Assembly (NCBI GenBank): GCA_003135635.1
Contig: PLCJ01000003.1
Location: 53,087 to 117,086 of the forward strand
Origin: Candidatus Adlerbacteria bacterium
GTDB lineage: Bacteria; Patescibacteriota; Minisyncoccia; Phycocordibacterales; SBAW01
Direction: 5' to 3'
Length of the DNA stretch: 64,000 nt
The notes under the pieces were generated by a model, which had not been told where the DNA came from, did not search any database, and saw nothing but the letters and a program-made list of their open reading frames with translations. Positions 13,110 to 48,575 of this stretch are shown one piece after another. Position 1 is the first letter of the stretch. Every line of letters starts with the position of its first letter. A program made the position numbers and the translations under genes.

Positions 13110-13195
13110 CCGTCTGCCAGCAAACCGCTTGGAGGACGATTTTGCCTTATTTATTCAATCAACTCTTCTATCTCCTCTAGTGAAAAAAGTCAACT
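13110..13195 (+). repeat. Composite island element, copy A (type I hairpin with GGAGGA loop, then degenerate core)
   Basis: cagcaaaccgcttGGAGGAcgattttgcc hairpin followed by a T-rich run and caatcaactcttctatctcctctagtgaaaaaag. Confidence 0.5.
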
Positions 13196-13544
13196 TTTTT
13201 GATATAGTGCACATGCCCGAGACATCTCCCGGGTAGAGTGTTGGCCCTACCTACAAATAGAAAAGATACGGCGTTTCGGGCAGCGGGCATGAAACAGCCA
13301 TTCTTTTCACCAACCGGAGCATCGTGCCCCGTAATGTATTGTGGCATGTTAAGGGGAATTCTTGAGTGCTTTTCTCCCAAGATGCTATGAACAAGCAACA
13401 CGAGGACAGGGCAGACCAACTGCTCCCCACCACGTCGAAAGGCTTGGTGGGTTTTACTTTTTATATCTTCAAACGGATTTGAACATCGTCTGCAAGGGAG
13501 AAAAAAACAACACAAAATTCCTTTATAAGGTAGAATCCGTAGTG

Positions 13545-14150
13545 ATGAAAAAGGACAACACGGGATCCGTTATTGAGTTTTATAAAGTACTAAATATATT
13601 TCAGCATGTGGTACGTGTGCCACATGTCCCCGGAGAAAACCGACGTGAAAACGATGTTGAACACAGTTATTTTTTAGCAATGATGGCATGGTATATGATC
13701 GATATCCTCAAACTCAATCTGGATATGAGTAGGGTTTTGCGATACGCACTAATACATGATTTGGTAGAGGTGTATGCAGGAGACACATATGTGTTTTCAA
13801 AAAATAAAGAGCTTCTTGAGACAAAACATAAGCGTGAGGGTGAAGCACAGAAGAGACTCAAATCTGAGTTTCCAGAAATTGAAAGCATGCACGAATGTAT
13901 CGAGCAGTATGAACGACGAAGTGATTCAGAAAGTGTATTTATTCATGCCCTTGATAAACTTATGCCGGTTCTTAACCAATATATTCAAGATGGTCGTACA
14001 TGGAAATCTGAAAAAATCTCCTTCTCAGATATTGTGACATTGAAACGCCGCACAGTTGCAGCTTCTCCAGAAATAAAAAACTTATTAGAACAATTAATCC
14101 AGCTAATAGAAAAAGATAGGAAACGCTTCTTCGGTGAATTAATAGATTAA
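13545..14150 (+). CDS. HD-domain phosphohydrolase (YfbR-like 5'-deoxynucleotidase family)
   Basis: H...HD...D metal-binding pattern (EHSYFLAMMAW, IHDLVEVYAGD). Start trimmed to MKKDNTG. Confidence 0.75.
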   Translation: MKKDNTGSVIEFYKVLNIFQHVVRVPHVPGENRRENDVEHSYFLAMMAWYMIDILKLNLDMSRVLRYALIHDLVEVYAGDTYVFSKNKELLETKHKREGEAQKRLKSEFPEIESMHECIEQYERRSDSESVFIHALDKLMPVLNQYIQDGRTWKSEKISFSDIVTLKRRTVAASPEIKNLLEQLIQLIEKDRKRFFGELID

Positions 14151-14299
14151 GAATAGACAAGTTTGAAAATCATCCCATTGGGAGAGCTGGAAAGAATTAT
14201 TTAAGAAGATTTTGAGATACTTGACATAATGCAATTGAGATGGAAATATCATCGCATTGTTCACTGACTGAAGTGAATGTTCTTTGAGGAAACAAAATT

Positions 14300-14710
14300 A
14301 TGCGCAAGGTCCTAGTTGCCTTGATCGTCGCTTTGGTATGCGGAAGCACCGCACAAGCGCGATCTAATTCCATCGCCATATCCCCGAATATGAAATCGCC
14401 GTGCGTTGGTACACCCATGATAGCTCAGCAACCTGCACCGGCGCCCCGCTACCTTGTGTGTGGCGTAACAACGTACTTGGTGGACGAGCGGGATAACGTG
14501 ATCTCCAACGCCTGGTATGACAAATTTCAACGGTTGCAGAACGGCAGCTGGGTTGGGAAACAAGGTGCCCTGTTCTATCTCTTAAGAAACGGCCAACCCA
14601 TTTCATATGGGTACCACAGAATCGTTCCAATAAAGAACGGCTACCGTACCGAGTTGGGAGCATTTCGCTTCATCCTCAACACGAACGGTCAGGTTGTTCC
14701 ACAACATTAG
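14300..14710 (+). CDS. hypothetical secreted protein
   Basis: Signal peptide MRKVLVALIVALVCGSTAQA. RBS gaggaaa. Confidence 0.6.
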   Translation: MRKVLVALIVALVCGSTAQARSNSIAISPNMKSPCVGTPMIAQQPAPAPRYLVCGVTTYLVDERDNVISNAWYDKFQRLQNGSWVGKQGALFYLLRNGQPISYGYHRIVPIKNGYRTELGAFRFILNTNGQVVPQH

Positions 14711-14716
14711 AGTTGG

Positions 14717-14831
14717 CTCCGCGCCGACAGGAAGCTCTGTATTGACTTTCTGTAGTGCGGAGTTTTCTTTTTATACCCTCACTCCCCTATTTACATAAGT
14801 TCCAACATCCTCTAAGGCACGGAGCAAAAAT
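14717..14831 (+). repeat. Composite island element, copy B (type III hairpin CTCCGC..GCGGAG, T-run, ATACCCTCAC, core)
   Basis: gtgcggagttttctttttataccctcac...gttccaacatcctctaaggcacggagcaaaaat. Confidence 0.8.
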
Positions 14832-14895
14832 ATACCCAGGGATACTCTTTACAAACAACCAAACTTATGCTTTACTTCGGTCAGGAGGGAGTGCT

Positions 14896-15177
14896 ATGCT
14901 CCATTTCATTGCACAGACCTGGTGGGTGTGGTTGTTGTTCACAGTAAGCGCCACCTTCTACGTCGTCTATTACGTGTTGCACGCAATACGCGGTAGCATA
15001 CAAGCAGCAAGAGGATACAAAAAGTTCAAACTTAATGACCCTTCCAACATCTGGAAGATAGACGGTTTCTTAACACTCATCGCGGGTATAAAGATACTGT
15101 TTGTCTGCCTGTGGGTCATACCCATAGCGGGACTTATGCTTGTTCTTTCAACACTCCTCGTCATATTTCGCTACTGA
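14896..15177 (+). CDS. hypothetical membrane protein (2-3 TM)
   Basis: Start at ATG preceded by GGAGGGAG. Hydrophobic helices. The longer ORF upstream reads through element copy B. Confidence 0.55.
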   Translation: MLHFIAQTWWVWLLFTVSATFYVVYYVLHAIRGSIQAARGYKKFKLNDPSNIWKIDGFLTLIAGIKILFVCLWVIPIAGLMLVLSTLLVIFRY

Positions 15178-15285
15178 GCCGCCTTTCGAAAGATTGGCGG
15201 TTCTCTCGTCAGTACAGTAAAAGCGAAGCAGCAGCGTGGCTCAAAAGTCACTACCACAACTAGCTCAAGCCATCACTTGCCATTC

Positions 15286-15366
15286 ACCAGCAAGCCGCCT
15301 GGAGGACGGTTTTGTTTTTTTATACACTTAACCAGGTTCTAACATCCTCCACGAGGGTAAGCGGAT
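15286..15366 (+). repeat. Composite island element, copy C (type I hairpin, T-run, ATACAC, core)
   Basis: accagcaagccgcctGGAGGAcggttttgtttttttatacacttaaccaGGTTCTAACATCCTCCAcgagggtaagcgg. Confidence 0.85.
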
Positions 15367-15474
15367 TTTACTAATAAATTGGGAACCGTATACCCTCTAG
15401 TTACCTTTCATTCTCTGGTATATACTCGCGTCAGAAGATTTCGCGTCGCTGGCACTGCCAGAGAGGAGGAGGTC

Positions 15475-15855
15475 TTGCTGCGAATCGTAGTAATACTTAG
15501 TTCAAGTGTTCTTTTCGTGTTTCTCACCATCGAAATTGCCGTCGCGCAAGGTGCTGGTGCTACCATCCGGCATGGAGAATCAGTTATCGTGTGGAACCGC
15601 TACATTGGTAACGACTCTGGACGTTTATGCCGCATAAAACGGGGAGCAATGCTTACAGTCATTGGAGTACGTGATAGCGGAATAGGCGAAAGCGGGAAAA
15701 AAGAAAAACTGCTGGTAGTTCGCTACGACACTGAAGAGGGCGTGACGTATGTTAACGCTAAGCACGAGTGTACCAACCATGTCGTGCTTTTGAAGACACG
15801 TCAGGAGTACAATTCCCTTGTCTCCAACAAACCATTTCATGGTAATAAGCATTGA
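15475..15855 (+). CDS. hypothetical secreted protein
   Basis: TTG start after gaggaggagg. Signal peptide LLRIVVILSSSVLFVFLTIEIAVAQG. Confidence 0.5.
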   Translation: MLRIVVILSSSVLFVFLTIEIAVAQGAGATIRHGESVIVWNRYIGNDSGRLCRIKRGAMLTVIGVRDSGIGESGKKEKLLVVRYDTEEGVTYVNAKHECTNHVVLLKTRQEYNSLVSNKPFHGNKH

Positions 15856-15950
15856 AGAGTCTGTCTGCAACAGGCTCTTCTTTTTTATACAATCACCAGC
15901 ACCTTTATTGGGCAGGTTTAAAAGTCATCTACAGTAGAGCAATTAAAAAC
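15854..15950 (+). repeat. Composite island element, copy R (terminator, T-run, ATACAATCACC, degenerate core)
   Basis: gaagagtctgtctgcaacaggctcttcttttttatacaatcacc...ggcaggtttaaaagtcatctacagtagagcaattaaaaac. Confidence 0.5.
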
Positions 15951-16218
15951 GGGATGCCAAAGCAATTTGCAATGGCAGCCCGTTTCTTGTTCAGGTATCT
16001 AGGGTATGTGTTGTAGAGAGGTAACTGTTTACAAACCACCTCCTTCGATCACAAAACGATTACACTTTCGAGTCTAGTTGAATTGTAACAAGAAAAGACG
16101 AAAAAGCAAGATATCGTGTTGGTAACTGTTTAATCTATAATCTAGCGGGGCCCATTTTCATGTTTTGACTCGTATGATATAGGATGTTATCTTTTAACCA
16201 GAACCTCGCGCGAAGGGG

Positions 16219-16455
16219 GTGAACATAGTGCGACAACTATCAGAGGGCTATATCTTTATAGATTACGAAACAGACGCTAAAGGAAGAAATATCGCTGCAA
16301 TATTCAAATCTAATACTACGTCTGGATCTGAACCTGTGGAGACTCATCGCTGGGGTAGGCCGTTCTGCGAGCAGCGCTTAAGCGCCCTCAAAAGCGGGAA
16401 GTTGCCCTCTGAGCACATGCAGCGTGCCTTAGACGGCTGGGACAGCAAGCCCTAG
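16219..16455 (+). CDS. hypothetical small protein
   Basis: GTG start after aagggggtg. 78 aa. Followed by an element hairpin. Confidence 0.4.
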   Translation: MNIVRQLSEGYIFIDYETDAKGRNIAAIFKSNTTSGSEPVETHRWGRPFCEQRLSALKSGKLPSEHMQRALDGWDSKP

Positions 16456-16461
16456 CGATAT

Positions 16462-16556
16462 CCGCCCACCGGAAGACTGACCCATCAGTCCATGGTGTGG
16501 CGGTCTTCTTTTTATTCAACCAGCTTTCACTATCAAATAGGTTTAAATCTTGTCTA
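16462..16556 (+). repeat. Composite island element, copy S (type II hairpin CCGCCC..GGCGGTCTTCTTTTTATT, degenerate core)
   Basis: The 18-mer GGCGGTCTTCTTTTTATT is shared with copy N. ataggtttaaatcttgtc resembles the core. Confidence 0.5.
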
Positions 16557-16573
16557 TAATGGTTTGCGAAGGC

Positions 16574-31539: not shown

Positions 31540-31611
31540 TCCGGCGTAGCTCAATGGTAGAGCAGCTCCCTGTTAAGGAGTTGGTTGTAGGTTCGAGTCC
31601 TACCGCCGGAG
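31540..31611 (+). tRNA. tRNA-Asn (anticodon GUU)
   Basis: Cloverleaf: acceptor UCCGGCG/CGCCGGA, D-arm GCUC-AAUGGUA-GAGC, anticodon stem GCUCC/GGAGU with loop CUGUUAA, T-arm GUAGG-UUCGAGU-CCUAC, discriminator G. Confidence 0.85.
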
Positions 31612-32913
31612 CAAGATAGGATTTTTTGAGTACAAATCATCCATATCCCTTGTGTTTGCTTTGTTTTCTACAGGTTCTAACTTTGCGTGAATAGCGCGGA
31701 CCTCAATTGCCATCGTTTGTATTGGGAATAACAGATTATCCCAGTCAATGCTCAACTTCCTGCCTTTTAAGATGAGGTCCGAACCTAGCGCGGCGAAAAT
31801 CTCTTTCCGAGTCTCAAGGTCGTTTCTTTTCTTTGCCTCGGCAAAAACAGCCATCCCCTTCTCTGCAAAGTTGAAACCGCGCTCGGCAATCTCAAGCCAG
31901 TTCTCCACACGCTTATCAGTATCCTTGAGGAGTTCTTGAAGTCGTCCCTTTTCAGCAAGGAGTGTTTGTTTTCTGCCCTTGAACTCCCCCTCTGTCAGCT
32001 CACCGTTGGCACGCATATCAATGAGGTTGTCTACCCTGCGCACACATGCCTCATATTCGCGCCTCTGTGCACCGTAGATACGGTCTCGGTCCGATACCTC
32101 TTGCGTGTTCATCTCACGAAGGCGTGCTAAAGCCCAGTTATTGAAATCAGTAGGTATCTCTATTGAGCCCAGCTCCTTTGCTATCTGTTTCTCAAGCTCC
32201 GCTTCCTCAATCGCTGGCTCTTTGCAGTTCGGGTTCCTGCGTTTGGTGCAATGATAGTAAGTGTAGTGGTGCGTGTTGCCGTTTTTCTGGTATTTCACTT
32301 TTTCCTCGGCAGTAACCATAGCGCCACATCCTCCACACTTGATAGGTCCGCGATACATAATCTCGTGCTTCTTTGGGTGCGGGTAGTTCTTTCGTCCAAT
32401 CAAAAACTGTATGCGGTCATACTCCTCGCGGGTAATCATCGGCTTGTGGATGCCCTTCATCGTGCTAAAGAGTTTCATATCCCGATACTTGTTTGTAGTC
32501 CACGCGGGCACGATGCTCCAAAAGTGGAGTTGTCCATTGTCGCCGATTTTACGGAGAATGACTTTGATTTTGCGCCCATCGGTGATAGCGATAATGCCCC
32601 AATACTTCACGGGCTTTGCTTTGAGTATTTTTTTCTTATGACTTTTGACCTCAAACTGTTTGATAGTTTCTTCGTATTCTTGATAGGTATTAGAGTGCCC
32701 TATGAGTTTTATGGCGCGTGGCAGGAGCTTGAAGCGTAGTATTTGTGATGGACGCTCTCGCTCACTCCGTGAACCTTTGAAAATGATGTGATTGAAACCC
32801 TCTGCTGTGAAATGCACATACTCGTTGAGTGCGGGCGACATAATAGGGCGGGTGGCGCTATAGAGTTTTTGAGCGTCCTCACGGAGTTTGTCGTAGTTAG
32901 AAAGGTCTTCCAT
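31600..32913 (-). CDS. Large-serine-recombinase-like protein (recombinase domain, Zn beta-ribbon, coiled coil) without recognisable resolvase catalytic domain
   Basis: ITREEYDRIQFLIGRK then GPIKCGGCGAMV...YTYYHC...C matches the LSR recombinase/zinc-ribbon region. Long C-terminal coiled coil. The N-terminal 150 aa lack the YxRVSxxxQ serine motif. The 3' end overlaps tRNA-Asn by 12 nt. Confidence 0.65.
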   Translation of the reverse strand: MEDLSNYDKLREDAQKLYSATRPIMSPALNEYVHFTAEGFNHIIFKGSRSERERPSQILRFKLLPRAIKLIGHSNTYQEYEETIKQFEVKSHKKKILKAKPVKYWGIIAITDGRKIKVILRKIGDNGQLHFWSIVPAWTTNKYRDMKLFSTMKGIHKPMITREEYDRIQFLIGRKNYPHPKKHEIMYRGPIKCGGCGAMVTAEEKVKYQKNGNTHHYTYYHCTKRRNPNCKEPAIEEAELEKQIAKELGSIEIPTDFNNWALARLREMNTQEVSDRDRIYGAQRREYEACVRRVDNLIDMRANGELTEGEFKGRKQTLLAEKGRLQELLKDTDKRVENWLEIAERGFNFAEKGMAVFAEAKKRNDLETRKEIFAALGSDLILKGRKLSIDWDNLLFPIQTMAIEVRAIHAKLEPVENKANTRDMDDLYSKNPILLRR

Positions 32914-32970: not shown

Positions 32971-33399
32971 ATGCGCTATAATGCAGCAATGTATCGGGCA
33001 ACGAACCTTCAGAAAAAACTACTCTTTATTGCTCTCATAGCGTTTGTGATATTGAGCATGCCCGCTTCCGCTTCTCTAGCTATGCCCGTGGGCACAGACG
33101 GTCATATGTCAGGGTGTACCTTTATGAACGGCGGCTCAATCTGTACCATGGCTCCTTTGGAACACATAGCCGCTTGGCAAAGCATGTTCACCGCGGCGCA
33201 TCTCAAAGAAGCATCTCTTTTTCTCAACCTCATTCTAATCACTCTGTTCTCCGTCTTTCTTTTCTTACGACGTTTGGATACAAGTCAGCTTCAAAACAAA
33301 TCATTGTATACTCAACGTTTCAGATACCCTCGCTATTCAATTCGTAATGAATTACAAGAAGCGTTTTCTAGCGGCATTCTCCATCCCAAAGTTTTTTAG
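32971..33399 (+). CDS. hypothetical membrane protein
   Basis: Two hydrophobic segments. TATAAT promoter upstream. Confidence 0.45.
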   Translation: MRYNAAMYRATNLQKKLLFIALIAFVILSMPASASLAMPVGTDGHMSGCTFMNGGSICTMAPLEHIAAWQSMFTAAHLKEASLFLNLILITLFSVFLFLRRLDTSQLQNKSLYTQRFRYPRYSIRNELQEAFSSGILHPKVF

Positions 33400-33462
33400 A
33401 GCCGTATCAGAGCGTGTTGAATACCGCACGCAGTGTTTTTCTATTACCTAACTTTGTAACCT

Positions 33463-34182
33463 ATGGAACAAGAAACTAAAAAACTACAACTATCCCAGCC
33501 AGTCGCAATTATTATCGCAGGGGTCATCATAGCGGGAGCTGTCATCTGGAGCAGTGGTAACAGAAATGCTGCGCCAAATACAACTGGGAGTACCCAACAG
33601 CAGGGCTCTACCGTTGCTGTAGACAGCAGCAAAGTGAATATCCAAGGCGAGCCATTTATCGGCAATCCCAACGCTCCGCTTATCATCGCATACTGGTTTG
33701 ACTACCAGTGTCCGTTCTGTCAGCGCAATGAGGAGACCGCTATGCCGCAACTAATCAAGGACTATGTAGACACAGGCAAAGCAAAGCTCGTGTTCAAGGA
33801 TTACGAGTTCTTGGGCGATGACTCACAGACACTAGGACAATACGCCCGTGCAGTATGGGCAACAGCACCTGACAAGTTCTACCCGTGGCACAAAGCTATC
33901 TTTGACAATCAAGGTCAAGAGAATAGTGGCTGGGCAACACAGGCAAAAATCCTCTCCATCACAACAAGCGTACTTGGCGCTAGCGATACGGCTAAAGTAG
34001 TAGCTCTCGTAAAAACAAATGGGGCTGCTTACCAGAAAGTAATGGATGCAGATAAAGCCGAAGGTTCAGCAAACGGTGTTACAGGTACTCCAGGTATGGT
34101 CATAGGCAAGCATTTGGTTTCTGGTGCAATACCCTACGCTCAAATAAAGGCAACCATAGAAGCGGCTCTCAAAAACCAATAA
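33463..34182 (+). CDS. DsbA-family thiol:disulfide oxidoreductase (membrane-anchored)
   Basis: N-terminal TM. Thioredoxin fold with CPFC active site. Confidence 0.8.
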   Translation: MEQETKKLQLSQPVAIIIAGVIIAGAVIWSSGNRNAAPNTTGSTQQQGSTVAVDSSKVNIQGEPFIGNPNAPLIIAYWFDYQCPFCQRNEETAMPQLIKDYVDTGKAKLVFKDYEFLGDDSQTLGQYARAVWATAPDKFYPWHKAIFDNQGQENSGWATQAKILSITTSVLGASDTAKVVALVKTNGAAYQKVMDADKAEGSANGVTGTPGMVIGKHLVSGAIPYAQIKATIEAALKNQ

Positions 34183-34184
34183 GT

Positions 34185-34853
34185 ATGCAAAAGAAAACAT
34201 ACACTCCGCTGCTTATCCTAGCGGGCGCACTCCTCATAAGCGGCTTTATTGTTACCAAATCCAGCATCGTACCCAAAGCAAATGCACAGCTCACTGCTAC
34301 ATATAACAGTATTCCAACTGTGAGCGGTAAGGTGCTGTTCATGCAACAGAGCCAAAATCTAACACAGAGCGTTGACCCCGCGCTTGTTGATTTGGACTCC
34401 CAGCTCATTACTTGCAGTCCCAATGTAGATAGTTTGCTTACAGCTAAGCCTATGCTTGGAGGAAGCTGTCTGGCAGGAGATAGTACACTCGGCACAACAA
34501 CGGGCATGTTTTTAGGCGGTCAGTGCTGTGGGTCAATGAAAAATCTAACGGACTATAACACTGAACTTCAAAACCTTCAGCAATACAAAGACATTCCTGA
34601 TTTGCCAATGAACCCATACAAAACGCCCGTGGCTCTTGCGAAGAAATGGATTGACTACGACAAGGCAACTAACCTCACACCTTCAGAACAAGCAACTATG
34701 GACCAAGCAATGCATATGTCAAAAGAAGGTCCATGTTGCTGCAAATGTTGGCACTACTTCGTCAATGAAGGTATCGCAAAGAAAATGATAAAGGATTACC
34801 ACTACAGCGCTCAACAAGTTGCGGCATACTGGGATACTTCAAGTATCTGCTAA
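34185..34853 (+). CDS. hypothetical Cys-rich secreted protein
   Basis: Signal anchor. 13 Cys including CCGS and CCCKC clusters. Confidence 0.6.
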   Translation: MQKKTYTPLLILAGALLISGFIVTKSSIVPKANAQLTATYNSIPTVSGKVLFMQQSQNLTQSVDPALVDLDSQLITCSPNVDSLLTAKPMLGGSCLAGDSTLGTTTGMFLGGQCCGSMKNLTDYNTELQNLQQYKDIPDLPMNPYKTPVALAKKWIDYDKATNLTPSEQATMDQAMHMSKEGPCCCKCWHYFVNEGIAKKMIKDYHYSAQQVAAYWDTSSIC

Positions 34854-34856
34854 CCT

Positions 34857-35483
34857 ATGCGTATGTATATCTGCCCAATGCACCCAGAGGTTCGGCAAGA
34901 CAAGCCTGGTCGTTGTCCTAAATGCGGCATGGCTCTTGTAGATGAGAGCACGTACCAAGCTAAACCCGTTATTGCTGACAAGGGACTTGGGCAGATTACA
35001 TGGCGCAGTTACATACCACTGGCTGTCATTGGGATGCTATTACTGCTCTCTACTCTCGCTGTATCGGTACACCAGTATCTTTTGGGAAGTTTCTTACCCG
35101 CAAATGCCATATCCTACTTTATGGCGGGTTTTTTCATTGTGTTTGCGGGTTTCAAACTTATGGACTTGAAAGGGTTTGCGGAAGGGTACTCAACGTACGA
35201 CTTACTGGCAGGACGCTGGTTTCGCTACGGCTATGTTTATCCGTTTATTGAGCTTGGATTTGGTATGGCTATGCTCGCAGGAATAGTGAACCCCTCCCTT
35301 TTGTGGGCAGAGTTGATAGTAATGTTGTTCAGCGGTATAGGTGTTGCAATCAAACTGGCAAAAGGCGAGAAGTTTCAGTGCGCCTGTCTTGGAACTTTTC
35401 TCAAAGTACCCCTTACAAAAATCACACTCATTGAGGATTTCGGTATGGCACTACTCGCACTAGCACTTCTGCTCATAGGTTGA
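34857..35483 (+). CDS. Heavy-metal-binding domain fused to MauE/DoxX-like membrane oxidoreductase domain
   Basis: N-terminal YICPMHPE...PGRCPKCGMAL. 4-TM body with C-terminal CAC motif (FQCACLG), as in the MauE family. Confidence 0.7.
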   Translation: MRMYICPMHPEVRQDKPGRCPKCGMALVDESTYQAKPVIADKGLGQITWRSYIPLAVIGMLLLLSTLAVSVHQYLLGSFLPANAISYFMAGFFIVFAGFKLMDLKGFAEGYSTYDLLAGRWFRYGYVYPFIELGFGMAMLAGIVNPSLLWAELIVMLFSGIGVAIKLAKGEKFQCACLGTFLKVPLTKITLIEDFGMALLALALLLIG

Positions 35484-35785: not shown

Positions 35786-35843
35786 CGCTTTTACCCTCTA
35801 TCAAACAGGTTCTAACACAGTCCAGTTCGCGGAGCTAAAAAAG
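35786..35843 (+). repeat. Composite island element, copy D (TTTTACCCTCTATC, core)
   Basis: cttttaccctctatcaaacaGGTTCTAACAcagtCCAgttcGCGGAGCtAAAAaag. Confidence 0.7.
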
Positions 35844-36437: not shown

Positions 36438-36536
36438 CCCCGATGAGACTTCGTTCTCAACGGGGTTTCATTGTTTTTATACCCTCACTTCCCTTCCGAG
36501 ACTGGTTCTAACATCCTCCAGGGCGGGGAGCAAAAT
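36438..36536 (+). repeat. Composite island element, copy E (hairpin, T-run, ATACCCTCAC, core)
   Basis: ccccgatgagacttcgttctcaacggggtttcattgtttttataccctcacttcccttccgagactGGTTCTAACATCCTCCAgggcggggagcaaaat. Confidence 0.85.
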
Positions 36537-36568: not shown

Positions 36569-37009
36569 ATGAATCCATCGCTCAAACAACTGGAGCCATT
36601 GGTTGGTAAATGGGTCATGGAATTGTCCAATGCTTCCTTTCTTCCTGATCATTCTACCACTGTACGAGGAACCACTTCCTGCGAATGGATTGAGGGGGGT
36701 GATTTTTTAGCTGTGCGCCAAGGAGCCAAGGGAGCAGGAACTCCCTATTCTGTATGGCTTATTGGTCGTGACAAAGCATCTTCCGAGTATACTGCTCTTT
36801 ATTTTGACGACCGTGGAGTCTCAAGGGTATATAGAATGAGTTTTAAGAGCGGAATCTGGAAACTCTGGCGGGTCACACCTAAATTCTCGCAACGCTTCGA
36901 GGGCAAACTAAGCAAAGACAAAAAGACCATTAAAGCTCAATGGGAGAAAAAGTTTGGAAGCAAAAAGTGGGAACACGATTTCGACCTAACTTATAGCAAG
37001 CGTAAATAG
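36569..37009 (+). CDS. hypothetical protein (beta-rich, possibly lipocalin/DUF1579-like)
   Basis: 146 aa. Start set at MNPSLKQ downstream of the extended -10. Confidence 0.55.
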   Translation: MNPSLKQLEPLVGKWVMELSNASFLPDHSTTVRGTTSCEWIEGGDFLAVRQGAKGAGTPYSVWLIGRDKASSEYTALYFDDRGVSRVYRMSFKSGIWKLWRVTPKFSQRFEGKLSKDKKTIKAQWEKKFGSKKWEHDFDLTYSKRK

Positions 37010-37042
37010 CTTCTAACATTCTCCAAGGTACGGAGCAAAAAG
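37008..37042 (+). repeat. Composite island element, copy F (core only, abuts the stop codon)
   Basis: agCTTCTAACATtCTCCAaggtacGGAGCAAAAag. Confidence 0.8.
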
Positions 37043-37180: not shown

Positions 37181-37186
37181 TTAGGC

Positions 37187-37224
37187 TGGTTCTAACATCC
37201 TCCAAGGTGCGGAGCTATTTTTTA
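37187..37224 (+). repeat. Composite island element, copy G (core)
   Basis: ctGGTTCTAACATCCTCCAaggtgcGGAGCtatttttt. Confidence 0.85.
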
Positions 37225-37306
37225 TGCCTTATTTTCAATGGGATTTTTGATACCCCAATTGGACATCAGAACTTTTAATTGGCAATCTCAGTGCTAGGAT
37301 ATACAT

Positions 37307-37489
37307 ATGAACAAGCGACCGCTGTATGTGTACGTAATCGGAGTTGTTGTTGTGTGGGCGATTATTCTCACACTCTCATGGTTTGGAGTCATCTGGAAAC
37401 CCTTCAATGAAGTTGTCACAGTATGTGCGGGCTTCGCCCTCGGGATGCTCGCGATGTATATCGCCGTACACCTGTATAGGTGGAAATAA
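37307..37489 (+). CDS. small membrane protein (2 TM, 60 aa)
   Basis: Two hydrophobic helices (VYVIGVVVVWAIILTL, VCAGFALGMLAMYIAV). Confidence 0.5.
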   Translation: MNKRPLYVYVIGVVVVWAIILTLSWFGVIWKPFNEVVTVCAGFALGMLAMYIAVHLYRWK

Positions 37490-37521
37490 TCTAGCGGACA
37501 ACTCCTGCCCGCAGAGGACAA

Positions 37522-37530
37522 TGGTATAAT
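37522..37530 (+). promoter_or_regulatory. extended -10 promoter (TGgTATAAT), leaderless candidate
   Basis: atgGTATAAT lies 9 nt upstream of the ATG at 37540. Same architecture as at 48602-48610. Confidence 0.4.
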
Positions 37531-37539
37531 AACGACATC

Positions 37540-37719
37540 ATGGACAAATGGCGCTCGACATACGTCAAGCTAGTAGTACTTGAACTTGTACTAAGTGTGG
37601 TGTTCTTTGCACTCGGGCATTACATTGGGAACGCTTATTTTCGTGGCGTAGGTGTCGGCTTGTTAATCGCTTGGGTCACGGGCGCCTTAGCTTATTTTAT
37701 TGTGAAGAGAAGAGTTTGA
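37540..37719 (+). CDS. small membrane protein (2 TM, 59 aa; absent from the ORF track, which omits ORFs under 60 aa)
   Basis: MDKWRSTYVKLVVLELVLSVVFFALGHYIGNAYFRGVGVGLLIAWVTGALAYFIVKRRV. Confidence 0.45.
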   Translation: MDKWRSTYVKLVVLELVLSVVFFALGHYIGNAYFRGVGVGLLIAWVTGALAYFIVKRRV

Positions 37720-37776
37720 ATGTTTGTTTACACAAACCCCAACATTTGAATTTCTTTCGCTAGCGTTGCCCAATCC

Positions 37777-37812
37777 AGAGTTCTGAACGTGTCCAACGAG
37801 TGGAGCAACTAC
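37777..37812 (+). repeat. Composite island element, copy P (degenerate core), immediately followed by TTGACT
   Basis: agaGTTCTgAACgTgTCCAacgagtGGAGCAActac. Confidence 0.5.
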
Positions 37813-38559: not shown

Positions 38560-38646
38560 GGTGGATAGTGCATCCGAGACTTTTTTTATTACTTTGGCAA
38601 GGGGCTAAGATAGGTTCTAACATCTTCCACGAGGGGAGCAAAATGC
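38560..38646 (+). repeat. Composite island element, copy I (weak hairpin, T-run, core)
   Basis: gagactttttttattactttggcaaggggctaagataGGTTCTAACATCtTCCAcgaggggagcaaaatgc. Confidence 0.8.
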
Positions 38647-39459: not shown

Positions 39460-39502
39460 TGCGTTTATGTAGGTTCGAACATCCTTCATGAGGGAGAGTT
39501 CG
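39422..39502 (+). repeat. Composite island element, copy J (terminator, T-run, core closest to the tRNA-Asn 3' end)
   Basis: tgtAGGTTCGAacatCCTtCAtgaGGGAGAG shares the 10-mer GTAGGTTCGA with the tRNA-Asn T-arm. Confidence 0.8.
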
Positions 39503-40841: not shown

Positions 40842-40927
40842 GAGACCTCGCAGCAATTTTGCGGGGTCTCTTTTTTTTTATACAATCAAACTGTTTTGAA
40901 CATCCTCAAGGGTGCGGAGCAATAAAC
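40842..40927 (+). repeat. Composite island element, copy K (terminator, T-run, ATACAATCAAAC, core)
   Basis: gagacctcgcagcaattttgcggggtctcttttttttatacaatcaaactgTTTTGAACATCCTCAAgggtgcGGAGCAAtaaac. Confidence 0.8.
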
Positions 40928-41366: not shown

Positions 41367-41386
41367 TCATACTATAGCACCTAAAC

Positions 41387-41422
41387 GGGTTCTGGTACCT
41401 TCCACGAGGAGGAACAAAAAGG
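41387..41422 (+). repeat. Composite island element, copy L (degenerate core)
   Basis: gGGTTCTggtACcTtCCAcgaggagGAaCAAAAagg. Confidence 0.5.
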
Positions 41423-42163: not shown

Positions 42164-42247
42164 GACACCTCCTTTCTTTTTTTAATGTTCAGTAGCTGGC
42201 AGAACTATGTGAGATAGCGCCACAGAAGTCAAACTTTGTAATGAAAA

Positions 42248-42285
42248 TAGGTTCGAACATCCTCCACGAAGGGAGCAAACAAAAT
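42248..42285 (+). repeat. Composite island element, copy M (core)
   Basis: tAGGTTCgAACATCCTCCAcgaagGGAGCAAAcaaaat. Confidence 0.85.
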
Positions 42286-42792: not shown

Positions 42793-42846
42793 TCTCCCCA
42801 CTCCAATCTCTACCGTCTGACCTTTTATTGCCCCTGCCAACCAAGG

Positions 42847-42855
42847 TTGTATAAT
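42847..42855 (+). promoter_or_regulatory. extended -10 promoter TTGTATAAT for the surface-protein gene
   Basis: TGTATAAT lies 37 nt upstream of the ATG at 42892. Confidence 0.45.
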
Positions 42856-42891
42856 TATTGACACCATTTAATATCATTAATAATAAGAGCT

Positions 42892-44124: not shown

Positions 44125-44211
44125 AAGTCAAAAACGAGTTTGAAAGTCGCCCCATCGGAAACAGATATAAAGAAGACGCCGCTCTTTTCAGAACGGCGCT
44201 TGTGCTGCGGT

Positions 44212-44598
44212 TTAACACGCAAGTAAGCTTCTCATCCGATTTATTGTTAGACAGGCCGTTGTGGCTTCTTCGCATGTGGCCGCAAGTTTCTGCAGTCCAG
44301 AAGAATCATCATTGTGCGGTAATGCAGTTTCCACAACATTTACGATGAGCTCATGAAGACCACCAGGCATCGGATGGCTAAGAAGTTCGGAAAGGTGTCT
44401 GTGTGCCTGTTCGGCTCTCTGGCGCTGACCCGCAACAAAGAGGATGTATTTTCTGGAACCTGAATGCTGAGTCGGGTCGGCGTTGAGACAGAAGTACCGT
44501 ATGGCCGAAAGGTCTCGGGCCGCTTGTTGAATGCTCTGGCGCTGATTTCCTTCAGGGAATGAAGGCACAGTTTCGGTCCTCCTTTCAAGTGAAACCAT
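44212..44598 (-). CDS. hypothetical protein (doubtful)
   Basis: ORF in a GC-rich patch, no family. Alternative frames overlap it. Confidence 0.3.
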   Translation of the reverse strand: MVSLERRTETVPSFPEGNQRQSIQQAARDLSAIRYFCLNADPTQHSGSRKYILFVAGQRQRAEQAHRHLSELLSHPMPGGLHELIVNVVETALPHNDDSSGLQKLAATCEEATTACLTINRMRSLLAC

Positions 44599-44687
44599 TC
44601 CTACAATACCTAAAATTTTAAGGATGTCTACAACTGAAGTTTGGGTCGCAAAACACCATCTATCAAAATATAATTTCGGTGGTCTGC

Positions 44688-44975
44688 TTAGTAGTGAATC
44701 GTCGTAGTGGTACTTGTGACAGTACCACTGGTACTGTTTGGAACAGCGGTGGATCCACTACTTGGAACGTTTACTTGAATCGTGCTGGCGGGAGTTGAAT
44801 TATTCCCGACCCTGTAAAAACCAAACCATGCTATAAAACCTACAACCAGCAGCACTAGCAAGACGACGATGACAGTTAACGCTGAACCAGAGTCATTGCC
44901 ACCTCCTGTGTTATTAATTTCTGTAACCATACTATTGGATAGAGTAAATTCTAATAATAATTGGACCTTAGACAA
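44688..44975 (-). CDS. small membrane protein (1 TM, S/T-rich tail)
   Basis: TM ALTVIVVLLVLLVVGFIAWFGF. Confidence 0.45.
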   Translation of the reverse strand: MSKVQLLLEFTLSNSMVTEINNTGGGNDSGSALTVIVVLLVLLVVGFIAWFGFYRVGNNSTPASTIQVNVPSSGSTAVPNSTSGTVTSTTTTIHY

Positions 44976-45189
44976 GCCTTAAACCTCCAAGGAGCATGAG
45001 AACACCTACGATAATTGCCACAACTGCTACGACCATTGCTAAGGTGCGACTTGGAAAGAAGAAATGAATACCATACCCCAGAAAGAAAATGATTTCGCAC
45101 AATGTAAGTAAAGACATGGTTTGGTAGATTACTAATAATTTAGGAACTGCATCATGAATACGTTTTAGATTATGACAATAAAAAAACAA
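44968..45189 (-). CDS. small membrane protein (2 TM)
   Basis: Hydrophobic helices. Adjacent to the preceding small membrane gene. Confidence 0.4.
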   Translation of the reverse strand: MFFYCHNLKRIHDAVPKLLVIYQTMSLLTLCEIIFFLGYGIHFFFPSRTLAMVVAVVAIIVGVLMLLGGLRLV

Positions 45190-45431
45190 AAAAGCAAGGA
45201 AATCCTGTTGATATTAAAACTGACTCCAGTTCAAGATGTAGCGGTCTTTTTTTGTCCAACCAGCTTCCCTATCTCATCTATCACCCGCCCCGGTGAAGTA
45301 TATACTTCTTCCCACGCAGTAGTTTGAAAGTTGCTCCATAAGGAAGGGCGACATTTGATATTTTGTTACATTGTGTTATACTATTTGTAGTATCGTTCTA
45401 AAGAAAACTCTACGGAAGGACGTAAACAACC

Positions 45432-45668
45432 ATGGCGAGCAAGGAAGCTTCCCAGAGTATCCACCTCCTAGGCCTTGTTTCTGGTGCCGTCATCAATGGC
45501 AAGCGTTTCCATATGACAACCAAAGACCGTAAGATTGCGGAGCGAGAGGCCCAAGCCCTGGGTGGCGTTGTCCGAGACTACGGAGTCGACCTGAAGAGGA
45601 TCAATCCCAGTACACTGGAGGCAATAGACTGGGAGAAAACGAAAGGGTTCTCTGTTTGGCTCGATTAG
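45432..45668 (+). CDS. hypothetical small protein
   Basis: RBS ggaagga. 78 aa. Confidence 0.5.
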   Translation: MASKEASQSIHLLGLVSGAVINGKRFHMTTKDRKIAEREAQALGGVVRDYGVDLKRINPSTLEAIDWEKTKGFSVWLD

Positions 45669-45676
45669 ACTCCAAA

Positions 45677-45762
45677 CCGCCCAAGGAAGACCTCCTTCGG
45701 GCGGTCTTCTTTTTATTTGATTAAATAGGTTCAAACACCGTTTATGGCGGGAAGCGAAACAG
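45677..45762 (+). repeat. Composite island element, copy N (type II hairpin, T-run, degenerate core)
   Basis: ccgcccaaggaagacctccttcgggcggtcttctttttatttgattaaatAGGTTCaAACAcCgTttAtggcgggaagcgaaacag. Confidence 0.55.
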
Positions 45763-45874
45763 TCAAAAAAAGATTTAAATATCTGACCTTAATGTAGAGA
45801 ATTATAATTTGAGAAAATTTTGTTATACTGAATAGGATGTGTTTATCTAATCACCATTTTAACAAAATAATTTT

Positions 45875-46234
45875 ATGATAAGAAATATTGCATTTAGTGT
45901 GTATGCCGTAACAGATATGCTAAGGGCCAGAGCCTTTTATGAAGGTATGCTTGGATTAACACCGAGCCCTGAATACGACGGGAGCAAAAATCAAAACTGG
46001 GTTGAGTACAATATAGGAGCGGGCACTCTATCCATAGGATCCTCGCCAGATTGGAAACCATCAGAAGACGGAGCGGTGGTAGCTCTGGAGGTTGATAATT
46101 TTCATGAGTTTGTTGGGCAATTAAAAACTCACAATGTTTCTTTTAAACTTGAGCCACAGCAGTACCCAACCTGCGACATGGCGGTCATAGAAGATCCAGA
46201 TAAAAACAAGATTCTTATTCATCACAAAAAATAG
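45875..46234 (+). CDS. VOC/glyoxalase-bleomycin resistance family protein
   Basis: Paired beta-alpha-beta-beta-beta modules. 119 aa. Confidence 0.75.
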   Translation: MIRNIAFSVYAVTDMLRARAFYEGMLGLTPSPEYDGSKNQNWVEYNIGAGTLSIGSSPDWKPSEDGAVVALEVDNFHEFVGQLKTHNVSFKLEPQQYPTCDMAVIEDPDKNKILIHHKK

Positions 46235-46253
46235 TTTTGCTTAAAAACTACGT

Positions 46254-46721
46254 ATGGACAAGGGTACATGGATTGGAATTACATTGTTATGTATTCTGAC
46301 TTTAGGTCTTGTATATCTTATGGAACAAGTTCAAAACAATAACGGAAGTTCACAATCTGCGACATCCGCTCCAAGTGTCTCAACTCAAACAACAACTAAT
46401 AATACTTCGCAAACTACAAATACGACTGGCTTAGATTGTCAAACAATTGCAAATGAAGCAGCACAAAATAATCAGACAAAACAAGGCCAAACCACCACAG
46501 TGATACAGGCCCATTTAAATCAATCGCTGAATCAATGTTATTACGAACTGAATATTTTTACCGCGTCGGGTGATGAAACAGATATTAGAGTTGCACCCAA
46601 CGACACGATAGTGGCATATTGCATCACCATACCCTCAGGACTATCCTGTCAGAAACCTGGAGTTGGAGCTATAACGGAGCCGCAATTTAAACAGTTCTTA
46701 AAAAGCTATTTTACAAACTAA
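46254..46721 (+). CDS. hypothetical membrane-anchored S/T/N/Q-rich protein
   Basis: N-terminal TM, low-complexity linker, C-terminal Cys-containing domain. Confidence 0.55.
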   Translation: MDKGTWIGITLLCILTLGLVYLMEQVQNNNGSSQSATSAPSVSTQTTTNNTSQTTNTTGLDCQTIANEAAQNNQTKQGQTTTVIQAHLNQSLNQCYYELNIFTASGDETDIRVAPNDTIVAYCITIPSGLSCQKPGVGAITEPQFKQFLKSYFTN

Positions 46722-46761
46722 CTGACCCAGTAGAACGACTTGGTTTATAGAACTTCTTATC

Positions 46762-48126
46762 ATGAAGAACGCTTTAGAAAAATTCGTCGGTGAACCAGCA
46801 ATCCTAATGGAAAAAGGGATTGAGAAAGCTAAAAAACTAGAGGAGGAACTTATAAGTAAAAAACCCTTTAAACTTGCTGAAGAATACTGGGATACTTTAG
46901 GTCCTGGACTCACAACAGGAGCAGCAGATGATGATCCATCTGGAATCGCTACGTACTCTCAAACCGGTGCGCAATATGGATTCCAGTTGCTCTGGCTTGC
47001 AGCGTTTACTTTTCCACTCATGGCAGTTGTCCAGGAAATGTGTGCTCGCATCGGAGTCGTCACTGGGAGAGGTCTTGCTGCAAATATTAAACACCATTAT
47101 TCACGCCCCATATTGTATGTCACAACGATATTATTATTTGCCGCTAATACATTTAACATTGGTGCTGACTTAGGTGCTATGGCTCAAGGTGTGCGCTTAT
47201 TTGCTCCGAATTTCGCTCTCCCCTTCTTAATCATTGCTTTTGCATGTATCAGTTTGCTCTTACAAATCTTCACCACCTACGTCCGCTACGCGAAGTATTT
47301 GAAGTATTTGACACTAGTTTTGTTCGCGTATGTTTTCTCTGCTCTTTTGAGTCATTTGAACTGGACACAGGTCGCCGTTCACTCTATTGTGCCGTCGATA
47401 AGTTTTAACAAGGAACAAATTTATCTCATTTGCGCTATTTTAGGAACCACAATTTCTCCATATCTATTTTTTTGGCAAACTTCTCAGGAAGTCGAGGAAC
47501 AAAATTTGCAAATGCACAATACGGAAGCAGGATGGCATCAACATCCGGCTAAAAAAGATGTGCGCAATCTAAGAACCGATGTGTGGACAGGGATGTTTTT
47601 CTCCAATCTCATCATGTTCTTCATTATCGCTGCCTGCGCAGGGACACTGTTCGTACATGGTATTACTAACATCGCTACAGCTGCAGATGCAGCAACAGCA
47701 TTGCGGCCACTTGCTGGAGATGCCGCATATTTTCTCTTTGGAATTGGAATCATCGGAACTGGCATGCTTGCTATACCAGTATTAGCTGGTTCAACTTCAT
47801 ATGCCATATCCGAGAGTTTCGGCTGGAAGCATGGTCTCTATCGCAAACTTAAAGAAGCGTACGCATTTTATGGTGTCATCATCATTTCGATGTTACTTGG
47901 TATTATTATGAACTTTATAGGTCTAGATCCAATCAAGGCGCTCATTTATTCGGCGGTGGGCAATGCTTTGGTAGCTCCCGTTGTGCTTGTGTTTATTGTT
48001 CGCATGAGCAGTAACAAAAAAATTATGGAAGAGTACGTTAATCATCGGGCCGTAACTTGGGCGGGATGGTTTGTTACGGGAATTATGCTGATTTCTGGAA
48101 TAGCAGCTATCGTATCCCTTTTTTAA
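46762..48126 (+). CDS. mntH: NRAMP-family divalent metal (Mn2+/Fe2+) transporter
   Basis: GPG...DPSGIATYSQTGAQYGFQLLW matches the Nramp consensus. 11-12 TM. Confidence 0.85.
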   Translation: MKNALEKFVGEPAILMEKGIEKAKKLEEELISKKPFKLAEEYWDTLGPGLTTGAADDDPSGIATYSQTGAQYGFQLLWLAAFTFPLMAVVQEMCARIGVVTGRGLAANIKHHYSRPILYVTTILLFAANTFNIGADLGAMAQGVRLFAPNFALPFLIIAFACISLLLQIFTTYVRYAKYLKYLTLVLFAYVFSALLSHLNWTQVAVHSIVPSISFNKEQIYLICAILGTTISPYLFFWQTSQEVEEQNLQMHNTEAGWHQHPAKKDVRNLRTDVWTGMFFSNLIMFFIIAACAGTLFVHGITNIATAADAATALRPLAGDAAYFLFGIGIIGTGMLAIPVLAGSTSYAISESFGWKHGLYRKLKEAYAFYGVIIISMLLGIIMNFIGLDPIKALIYSAVGNALVAPVVLVFIVRMSSNKKIMEEYVNHRAVTWAGWFVTGIMLISGIAAIVSLF

Positions 48127-48170
48127 TGCGACTATTAAAGAGGGTTCATACCCCCATCTAGTCTGCGTGT

Positions 48171-48195
48171 ATAGGAGGTTCGAGTCCCATCGCTG
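48171..48195 (+). other. tRNA-Asn 3'-end-like fragment (possible distal att repeat of island 2)
   Basis: ataggAGGTTCGAGTCCcAtCGCtg against the tRNA-Asn tail gtAGGTTCGAGTCCtAcCGCcgg: 12-nt exact match plus flanking similarity, with a 3-nt insertion. Does not fold as a T-arm. Confidence 0.35.
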
Positions 48196-48255
48196 TTTTT
48201 GCGAAAATAAAAAATAGTGTTACTTTAATATAAGCTTGTTTGTCGGGAGGTTACA

Positions 48256-48483
48256 ATGACCAAGAAAAGACAGGGAGAGATAGCTCTCTTGCTTGTTGAG
48301 CACACAATGAGAAAGAAGGGTCTTTCTCTTACACAAGAATCCAGAGACGATAGCGCCCTCCTAGCTGAACAGATCGGCGTTCCTCAAAGAGAACTCGCTA
48401 GGTTCACTGCAACCACTTCGTCTAGGTTAGTCAAAGAATGGGCCGCGAAGAAGCCGACCGCGAAGACACCCAAAGATGTATGA
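48256..48483 (+). CDS. hypothetical small protein
   Basis: RBS gggagg. 75 aa. Confidence 0.5.
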   Translation: MTKKRQGEIALLLVEHTMRKKGLSLTQESRDDSALLAEQIGVPQRELARFTATTSSRLVKEWAAKKPTAKTPKDV

Positions 48484-48494
48484 CCACCGTCCCC

Positions 48495-48575
48495 AGCGAA
48501 GATCGTTAGGAGGACGGTTTTCGCTTTTTTATGTGCTCAGACTGGTTCTAACATCCTCCAAGGCGGGGAGCCAGC
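48495..48575 (+). repeat. Composite island element, copy O (type I hairpin with compensatory stem changes, T-run, core)
   Basis: agcgaagatcgttaGGAGGAcggttttcgcttttttatgtgctcagactGGTTCTAACATCCTCCAaggcggggagccagc. Confidence 0.85.

Follow-up and report, generated by a model that had tools for sequence, protein, structure and literature searches.

How bacteria of the candidate phyla radiation (CPR) gain and exchange accessory genes is largely unknown; their genomes are very small and contain few recognised mobile elements. The question is raised in a concrete form by a stretch of 64,000 nucleotides (nt) from a Candidatus Adlerbacteria contig (PLCJ01000003.1, positions 53,087 to 117,086), referred to here as the window, in which two islands are divided by a short repeat, the core. 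What does the core mark, and which enzyme would act upon it? Comparison with other genomes shows that cores are the boundaries of units that move between distant genomes and that each core belongs to the unit upstream of it. On balance, we consider it likely that each core represents the attachment-site junction with which a small integrative cassette terminates on its 3' side, and that the arrays are tandem cassettes without an integrase, which lie behind a tRNA gene and are moved by a serine recombinase of Patescibacteria. The cassette arrays appear to be an integron-like gene-capture system that has escaped description, as a previous sequence-only reading of the window had supposed: nothing of the kind was found in Rfam or in the searchable literature, where no paper was found that contains the core sequence or describes such arrays, integrons or serine recombinases of this kind in Patescibacteria. 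Loci in other genomes or contigs are designated by L-numbers; most array loci were viewed as 8-kb pieces.

The core as the boundary of mobile units

Searched with an nhmmer model of the core, the window yields 14 copies at E <= 0.003, all 14 on the + strand, with their GGTTC starts at 13475, 14798, 15335, 35808, 36504, 37009, 37188, 38171, 38613, 39472, 40893, 42250, 45728 and 48544. The minus strand holds no comparable match, and a reversed-sequence control gave none below E = 0.3. About seven more copies, degenerate and recognised by eye, lie near 13152, 14160, 15914, 16540, 37779, 41388 and 42768. The 32-nt full consensus with up to three mismatches is matched at four sites in the window, where none is expected. 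The sequence-only reading had counted nineteen copies; the repeat is real, and this number is about right only when the weak copies are included. Its observations that all copies share the + strand and that they are confined to two islands, at 13.1-16.6 kb and 35.8-48.6 kb, with not a single copy in the backbone, are borne out.

The conserved unit is about 34 nt long and reads AAAYA-GGTTCKAACATCCTCC-N7-GGAGC, the N7 being written M N6 in an alignment of 75 copies from many genomes. In this alignment, the information content is approximately zero outside positions -5 to +28, and therefore the terminator hairpin, T-run and ATACMMTCAC box, which had been joined with the core into one composite element, are not parts of a conserved whole. 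The box is not enriched (11 matches vs 10.4 expected), its distance to the core varies from 11 to 27 nt, and the hairpins 5' of the core vary between copies. Thus, the supposed composite is one 34-nt site placed 3' of each unit's own terminator, and the box and hairpin are the 3' end of the upstream gene. The short CTCC..GGAG hairpin described within the core is likewise not general: the inverted repeat is present in 41 of the 75 copies, about 20 have none at all, and in CGTCC variants the C-to-G change is uncompensated.

Intervals between cores had been described as 0.2-3 kb long and usually holding one gene. Most do hold a single gene, but they extend to 3.5 kb, and two of them (42250-45728 and 45728-48544) contain four to five genes each. 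The core keeps its + orientation even when the next gene lies on the minus strand.

That these intervals are mobile follows from their distribution. A segment of the window (37188-37806) is 90.5% identical to locus L207 at the nucleotide level over 622 bp, and outside this block there is no alignment. In the core at its left (core 11), 6 of 16 interior positions differ from those in L207, and identity restarts at CGGAGC, while the core at its right (core 12), an atypical variant, AGTTCTRAACGYGTCCAAC, is common to both. The homologous stretch thus starts at the GGAGC of the first core and stops at that of the second, which assigns the core to the cassette 5' of it, as its 3' end. The two genomes are very distant, their HisRS proteins being 24% identical and their recombinase/tRNA regions 72% identical at the nucleotide level. 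Other loci show the same limits. The homology between RhuM-like cassettes in L034, L079 and L113 begins at the core and their upstream DNA is unrelated; L040 contains a 99.6% identical cassette duplicate, with its left limit 3' of the core loop and its right limit at ...GGGA|; and L021 and L104 have one cassette end with its core in common, after which they diverge. The cassette-array interpretation offered by the sequence-only reading therefore stands, and its fear of perfectly syntenic units did not materialise: cassettes are common to distant genomes, where they have different neighbours. Strain-level variation is not visible, because L120 and L121 are 100% identical to the window (a 340-kb ENA contig contains it).

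The L040 duplicate and the L207 comparison map the crossover to the N7/GGAGC zone. The unit can accordingly be written as GC..., promoter-like site, gene(s), terminator, AAAYA GGTTCKAACATCCTCC N7 GGA, with the exchange predicted to occur in or adjoining GGAGC. Promoter-like sites lie 3' of cores at variable distance, for example at 48582-48610 in the window and as TTTGGTATACT in L020, L040 and L104 (sigma-70-like or extended -10), and terminator-like hairpins lie 5' of cores; both come from consensus scans only. Among 94 open reading frames (ORFs) of 17 array loci, no enriched mobility family was found. The cassette products in the window include HD, DUF1579, GH5-like, glyoxalase and NRAMP proteins and small secreted or membrane proteins.

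A scan for GGTTCKAACATCCTCC with one genome per species yields many chance matches inside genes. Among the matches listed, however, at least ~45 are full sites in intergenic DNA of metagenome-assembled genomes of Patescibacteria, in Paceibacteria, Saccharibacteria, WWE3, Uhrbacteria, Komeilibacteria, Kaiserbacteria, Colwellbacteria and others, and there are some in Omnitrophota. Arrays with one orientation, a spacing of 0.5-2.5 kb and mostly one gene per interval are present in L020, with eight copies in 8 kb, and in L104, L040, L021, L034, L016, L060, L113 and the Omnitrophota locus L072. The core is not a generic intergenic signal, the outcome that the sequence-only reading had held would refute it: in 907 kb of DNA surrounding lysS, taken from 80 related metagenome contigs, there is approximately one true copy, vs at least 14 in the two islands of the window.

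The features of the two arrays are as follows, beginning with array 2.

31540..31612, +: tRNA-Asn(GTT), heading array 2; proposed attB-type left half-site from T loop to acceptor 3' end, ...GGTTCGAGTCCTACCGCCGGA|GC (ARAGORN, Rfam, 3'-end comparison with cores)
31600..32913, -: gene for a large serine recombinase truncated at its N-terminus, with the stop codon inside the 3' end of tRNA-Asn; the gene/tRNA junction is the same in L203-L207 (Pfam Zn_ribbon_recom; weak NCBIfam XisF/CcrB)
32971..35483, +: cargo of four genes, located between the truncated recombinase gene and core 8, for a 142-aa unknown protein, a DsbA-like thioredoxin, a 222-aa unknown protein and HMBD-MauE (Pfam)
35803..35835, +: core 8, AAACAGGTTCTAACACAGTCCAGTTCGCGGAGC, first core of array 2 and proposed far-end junction of the recombinase element (nhmmer E=0.003, repeat search)
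36499..36531, +: core 9, canonical, closing cassette 35836-36531 with a 160-aa ORF at 35940-36422 (nhmmer E=2e-8, exact consensus match)
37004..37036, +: core 10, closing a DUF1579-like cassette (gene 36557-37009) without terminator, the core beginning at the stop codon (nhmmer)
37183..37215, +: core 11, canonical, closing a 180-bp unit without a convincing ORF (consensus match, nhmmer)
37216..37806, +: verified mobile cassette, with two small membrane-protein genes (37307-37489, 37540-37719) and its own core 12 (90.5% nucleotide match to L207:494-1113)
37774..37806, +: core 12, atypical, AGTTCTGAACGTGTCCAACGAGTGGAGC, common to the window and L207
38166..38198, +: core 13, with a degenerate 3' block (no GGAGC) (repeat search, inspection)
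38608..38639, +: core 14, a CTTCC/GGGAG variant with N6 spacer (nhmmer)
39467..39499, +: core 15, closing a lipoprotein cassette (38747-39400), 3' of terminator 39419-39450 (nhmmer)
40888..40920, +: core 16, closing a cassette with minus-strand GH5-like gene 39705-40532; terminator 40840-40872 (nhmmer)
41383..41415, +: core 17, weak; the preceding unit holds minus-strand membrane-protein gene 40935-41366 (repeat search)
42245..42276, +: core 18; the preceding unit holds minus-strand gene 41636-42163 (nhmmer)
near 42755-42800, +: very degenerate copy (inspection)
45723..45755, +: core 20, closing a multi-gene unit of an Ig-like surface protein (42892-44124), three minus-strand small genes and 45432-45668
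48539..48571, +: core 21, canonical, last of array 2, closing a unit of glyoxalase, secreted protein, NRAMP and a 75-aa ORF
48582-48610: sigma-70-like promoter 3' of core 21 (consensus scan)
13147..16568, +: array 1, in the lysS-mraZ spacer (nhmmer and inspection)
~13147-13185 (degenerate), 13470-13506, 14154-14188 (degenerate), 14793-14825, 15330-15362, 15909-15941 (degenerate) and 16535-16568 (degenerate): cores of array 1
13545-14150 and 15517-15855: array 1 cassette genes for an HD-domain phosphohydrolase and a 112-aa ORF, among others

The lysS-mraZ spacer (12964-16573) measures 3.6 kb in the window vs 112-1591 nt in about 60 relatives, and it is variable even where no cores are seen. The two membrane-protein genes of the verified cassette have 178 homologues across Patescibacteria, of which those in L221-L228 were examined. 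In L226-L228, the pair is in reverse order without flanking cores, and thus the same genes exist both as backbone genes and as a cassette. In these three closely related loci (~3100-4000), the space between a peptidase M48 gene and the pair holds an OmdA-like ORF, a 67-aa ORF or nothing, a strain-level turnover of small genes without detectable cores. A second small repeat family occurs within the arrays: CCGTyC-CCAGCrAnnCCGCyTGGAG-GACGG plus a T-run, which forms a large-loop terminator-like hairpin at four cassette 3' ends (~13105-13145, ~15290-15325, ~38120-38150 and ~48490-48525), the copies at 15.3 and 38.1 kb having 32 identical nt in common. The window itself is chromosomal, its backbone containing cysS, dnaB, rmuC, a murein ligase gene, genes for penicillin-binding proteins, rsmH, class-I lysS, two mreB genes, rpoD and dnaG. 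The MreB paralogues (21510-22580 and 26872-27885), 4 kb apart with MreC and a penicillin-binding protein between them, are unusual for a small CPR genome and are unrelated to the arrays.

tRNA genes and the large serine recombinase

Array 2 lies downstream of tRNA-Asn, on the same strand. This arrangement is not particular to the window: in 10 of the 12 core loci that contain a tRNA gene, it is upstream of the cores and co-oriented with them, as in the window, L060, L038 and L207 (Asn), L047 and L063 (His), and L082 and L102 (Trp). The last 6-9 nt of the core are a copy of the 3' end of the heading tRNA. In 8 of 9 cases the 3' block of the core matches that tRNA, including whether CCA is encoded: the block is GGAGC or GGAGCCA with Asn, GGCACCC or TGACCCC with His, and CCCTGC or CCCGC with Trp, and GGAGCCA occurs only where the tRNA-Asn gene encodes CCA. 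In L038, the first core begins 26 nt after tRNA-Asn, and the later cores resemble the 3' end of that tRNA. The left arm, GGTTCKAAC, resembles a tRNA T loop, and with an acceptor-end-like 3' block the core as a whole resembles a stretched tRNA 3' end. The cassette-array interpretation of the sequence-only reading had missed this mimicry, together with the single 34-nt site, the multi-gene units, and the tRNA-Asn and truncated recombinase gene at the head of array 2. As a separate observation, cores in L013, L072 and L106 (Omnitrophota) and in L047, L058, L103 and L108 (Saccharibacteria and relatives) have the same left arm with a His-like 3' block, CGCCAGTGACCCC or AGTCCCTGACCCC; the differing blocks on one arm show that the site family extends past Patescibacteria and has target-specific classes.

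The stretch is constant. From GGTTC to GGA, the distance is 26 nt in 46 of 48 cores and 25 nt in the other two, vs 21 nt between the equivalent positions of the tRNA (G52 to N72). In serine integrases, a motif for the zinc-ribbon domain is present in both attP and attB, and in attB it is nearer to the crossover by 5 bp (PMC3783163). Under this rule, the 5-bp offset gives the core the appearance of an attP-type half-site, and the tRNA end that of the attB-type half-site of the same enzyme.

A suitable enzyme is encoded next to the tRNA. Over residues ~150-437, ORF 31600-32913 shares 84% identity with full-length (~535-aa) large serine recombinases of Patescibacteria, and the resolvase catalytic domain is missing. 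Its NCBIfam scores are far below the cut-offs (CcrB, 24.4 bits vs 900; XisF, 37.7 bits vs 375). The ORF is chimeric, residues 1-150 matching no resolvase domain and resembling a different protein, and it is probably a deletion or fusion remnant. Full-length homologues are found at the end of elements of 10-12 kb with methyltransferase/helicase, MerR-like and DUF5659 genes and have their stop codon in tRNA-Asn; in L203, L204, L206 and L207 they end exactly at the 3' end of that tRNA. In L229 and L231, the full-length gene ends at a core, in the same register as at the tRNA. In 16 of 97 full-length family members, the C-terminal tails, L(D/N)(D/E)VRT, are the antisense translation of the core; most others either read through the T arm of a tRNA (RDSNP) or end in its acceptor stem. 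The far end of the recombinase element, too, is marked by a core, both in L207 (10.5-kb element) and in the window, and recombinase fragments adjoin cores in L104 and L060. The cargo genes at 32971..35483 may be read as a remnant of the recombinase-bearing element, their position matching that in L207. Two side observations concern these elements. The serine recombinase genes of the window (31670-31681), L203, L207 and L229 have within them, ~58 nt from the tRNA end, a conserved ACAGGTTCTAAC (codons L-E-P) that agrees letter for letter with the best-conserved portion of the core and may be a coincidence, a secondary site or the evolutionary origin of the core arm; and in L203-L205 (8729-9853) a gene for a 374-aa tyrosine recombinase lies directly upstream of the serine recombinase gene.

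The system probably runs on a large serine recombinase of this family. In that case, circular DNA with a core junction would be integrated by the recombinase at the 3' end of a tRNA gene, which would be left intact, and the P arm of the element, i.e., the core, would end at the distal junction. The zinc-ribbon domain would read GGTTCKAAC, located 5 bp farther from the crossover in the core than in the tRNA, strand exchange would occur at or beside GGA|GC, and the next cassette would begin at about GC. Small cassettes with the site but without a recombinase could be moved in trans, and repeated events would stack them head to tail behind tRNA-Asn, as in array 2, or behind tRNA-His or tRNA-Trp in some other genomes.

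Several observations do not fit this scheme easily. The window has a single recombinase copy, a truncated one without the catalytic domain, recombinases of any class are absent from the 8-kb pieces of most array loci, and none was identified for cores with His-type or Trp-type 3' blocks. Array 1 has no tRNA at its head, and a search of the window for a displaced 3' half of tRNA-Asn found none. The 5-bp relation holds for the left half-site only: a mirrored GTTNGAAC motif at +2 to +40, right of the junction, is present in 4 of 48 cases vs 2.1 expected in shuffles, and the P' arms of the recombinase elements have only WGGATTKT in common. Moreover, canonical serine integrases recombine attP with attB only. 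The internal junctions of the arrays are all attP-like, which argues against a strict attP x attB reaction, and growth of the arrays would need a relaxed or different one. The crossover is resolved to ~6 nt, and in L202 the recombinase gene adjoins a partial tRNA that starts in the anticodon loop, so that the crossover could be located there instead of at the 3' end. A crossover in the anticodon loop, for which L202 was the sole basis, was dropped as the leading interpretation because the genes in L229 and L231 end at cores in the same register; it is kept as a caveat.

A wider reading, tentative and in our estimate rather less probable than its negation, is that the arrays form a gene-capture platform spanning the phylum Patescibacteria and some Omnitrophota, parallel to integrons but built independently. 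A serine recombinase would read a T-loop mimic and dock at tRNA 3' ends, and each cassette would carry a promoter, a terminator and the 34-nt site and could be exchanged between very distant lineages. As the internal junctions stay attP-like, single cassettes would then be individually mobilisable, and the platform might be a main route to surface and accessory genes for tiny episymbiotic genomes. The conserved site marks exchangeable one-gene units in many lineages, which makes this flexible gene pool directly searchable, and a specific enzyme-site pair is predicted. If the reading of the 5-bp shift is true, the recombinases would be a natural family of serine integrases with a universal tRNA feature as host site, of relevance to site choice and genome engineering. 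The arrays also show that neither attC sites nor IntI are required for cassette arrays of an integron-like kind to arise.

Competing explanations

The same cassette and attachment-site organisation could be served by a tyrosine recombinase, either an integrase that targets tRNA 3' ends or a host Xer-type enzyme, with CCTCC and GGAG(G) as inverted arms and N7 as the overlap. We consider this unlikely, but it is a live rival, given the attP-like junctions, the lack of a right-hand motif, array 1 without a tRNA, L202 and the small number of recombinases. CCTCC-N7-GGAG has the 5+7+5 layout of a tRNA arm that is typical for tyrosine integrases, an identity block common to core and tRNA 3' end is typical of their attachment sites, the crossover maps to the N7/GGAGC zone, and the lack of an integrase beside most arrays fits a host enzyme acting in trans. 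We also take TAACAT in the core to resemble the XerD arm of dif, a weak match of 6-7 out of 11. However, jackhmmer searches with XerD and the L203 integrase found no tyrosine recombinase in the window or in array loci, but only within the element of the serine recombinase (L203-L206) and in a Chryseosolibacter locus that is unrelated. The N7 spacer varies within one array, which tyrosine recombination usually does not tolerate, and the inverted repeat is absent from about 20 of the 75 cores. Furthermore, the constant 5-bp offset and the serine recombinase genes that end in register at cores would be left unexplained. Alternatively, the cores might be passive scars, i.e., decayed partial-tRNA copies left by successive full-size integrations at tRNA-Asn, each of them whittled down to one gene, without any cassette mobility. 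Islands with partial tRNAs and integrase fragments are documented for the tycheposons of Prochlorococcus (10.1101/2020.12.28.424599), a truncated recombinase and a tRNA stand at the head of array 2, and the L038 cores closely resemble the tRNA-Asn 3' end. Nevertheless, this explanation is improbable: conservation across classes of Patescibacteria and Omnitrophota includes the 16-nt arm GGTTCKAACATCCTCC, although this is not tRNA sequence; decay would blur the near-invariant 26-nt spacing; and a 620-bp unit that is 90.5% identical between genomes with ~24% identical housekeeping proteins ends exactly at cores, as does the L040 duplicate.

Two further explanations do without an attachment site of this type. 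The sequence-only reading had offered a regulon-wide operator or processed RNA as its alternative, and the core could more generally be a regulatory signal, such as an island-regulon promoter or operator, a boxA- or ops-like antitermination site, or an RNA that is structured or processed. In favour of this are its strand-specific, intergenic position just 3' of terminators and an anti-Shine-Dalgarno-like CCUCC that can pair with GGAG; GGTTCTAACA also bears a faint resemblance to boxA. But the core moves with the upstream unit and not with the downstream gene, promoter-like sites follow it at variable distance, its orientation stays + ahead of minus-strand genes, the distance between GGAG and start codons is variable, and the hairpin is missing from a quarter of the copies and, in the CGTCC variants, not restored by compensation. 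The core is absent from backbone intergenic regions and has no Rfam match even at E<=5; at the gathering threshold, Rfam 15 finds only two tRNAs in the window, and the search at E<=5 of 35.7-39.6 kb returned a single chance miRNA match. A regulatory role is thus very improbable, and hardly any weight at all can be given to the idea that these are classical integron cassette arrays or clusters of attC sites lacking integron-integrases (CALINs) with divergent attC sites. The single site orientation, the mostly single ORFs per unit with some reversed ORFs and some empty units, and the typical content (NUDIX, GST, glyoxalase, nucleotidyltransferase, Fic/RhuM) would suit integrons, and TTCTAAC matches 6 of 7 positions of the R'' box RYYYAAC. 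However, attC sites are imperfect inverted repeats, R''(RYYYAAC)...R'(GTTRRRY), of 57-141 bp that fold as single strands, whereas the site discussed here is ~34 nt long and, as the sequence-only reading had recognised, has no attC structure: within +-160 nt of 17 cores, no inverted GGTTCKAAC partner with up to two mismatches is found at a consistent place, which leaves no R''/R' pairing. There is no IntI or other tyrosine recombinase nearby (no Phage_integrase by Pfam on all large ORFs of the window; jackhmmer), the cassettes carry promoter-like sites and terminators of their own, and the crossover is at GGAGC, not at G|TT.

Several narrower candidates were considered and dropped. Hexamers and spacing do not fit a sigma-70, ECF or sigma-54 promoter inside the core by inspection; a minus-strand sigma-70 promoter, TTGCTC-N17-TAGAAC, lacks the final T, and its -35 element is not conserved in other genomes. 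Sequestration of the Shine-Dalgarno sequence was rejected because GGAG lies from 4 to more than 100 nt from start codons, boxA/ops-like antitermination because the core is upstream of promoter-like sites, and a minus-strand mini-ORF (GGAGG-ATG-TTM-GAA-CC, 'MLEP/MFEP') because its length ranges from 1 to 58 codons with no conserved end. The core occurs in one orientation and in islands only, unlike a DNA uptake sequence; it has only TAACAT in common with a dif/Xer site and no 11-6-11 layout; and ARAGORN finds no tRNA-like cloverleaf. A phage-borne element was discarded as well, since none of the 12 exact 16-mer matches in viral contigs has the 3' block or an intergenic context.

Comparison with known systems

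In organisation, the arrays are comparable with integrons and CALINs. In both, the sites have one orientation, and every cassette, mostly of one gene and also found in other contexts, ends with a site on its 3' side; both also have occasional reversed or empty cassettes, accessory content, often no adjacent integrase and the same cassette in unrelated genomes. Still, membership of the arrays in this group fails. They lack the attC fold (R''/R', L''/L' pairing) and IntI, their cassettes have promoter-like sites and terminators of their own whereas integron cassettes are mostly promoterless and depend on Pc, and they are headed by a tRNA gene instead of attI/Pc. While attC is conserved in structure only, the 34-nt site is conserved in sequence across phyla.

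Islands built by tycheposons beside tRNA genes in Prochlorococcus (10.1101/2020.12.28.424599) share with the arrays a full-length tRNA anchor, co-oriented att repeats inside the island, and adaptive or accessory cargo. Repeated integration pushes older elements deeper, att copies and integrase fragments are scattered, and a minority of tycheposons use large serine recombinases. In contrast to the arrays, however, these islands have genuine partial tRNAs as repeats, and their elements measure kilobases and bring along an integrase and replication genes; the array repeat consists of a conserved non-tRNA arm and a short tRNA-end block, and nearly all units are without a mobility gene.

The attachment sites of serine integrases such as A118/LI, Bxb1 and phiC31 (PMC3783163) resemble the array sites in that the same 9-nt motif is present in the host and element sites, 5 bp farther from the crossover in the latter, with the recombinase gene directly at the junction. 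They differ in that the array motif is present in one half-site only, without a quasi-palindromic second half-site, and in that the junctions within arrays are attP-like, a pairing which the model enzymes do not recombine.

Finally, composite islands of the staphylococcal cassette chromosome (SCC) at rlmH, which depend on the large serine recombinases CcrAB/CcrC (PMC8772726, PMC7029136, 10.1101/336396), provide a further parallel. The target of the arrays is a tRNA 3' end and not a protein-coding gene, their units measure 0.2-3.5 kb and often contain a single gene, vs 3-60 kb for SCC, their site is a tRNA mimic with a 5-bp-stretched arm, and their hosts are Patescibacteria and Omnitrophota. 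Nonetheless, SCC elements likewise leave intact the conserved gene at whose 3' end they insert, and they stack in tandem with short direct-repeat integration-site sequences between them. Many pseudo-SCC units, like the cassettes, have no recombinase and depend on an enzyme in trans. The enzymes are in both cases large serine recombinases, for the arrays by inference, and the array recombinase is not a Ccr orthologue, so that the class is the same and the family different.

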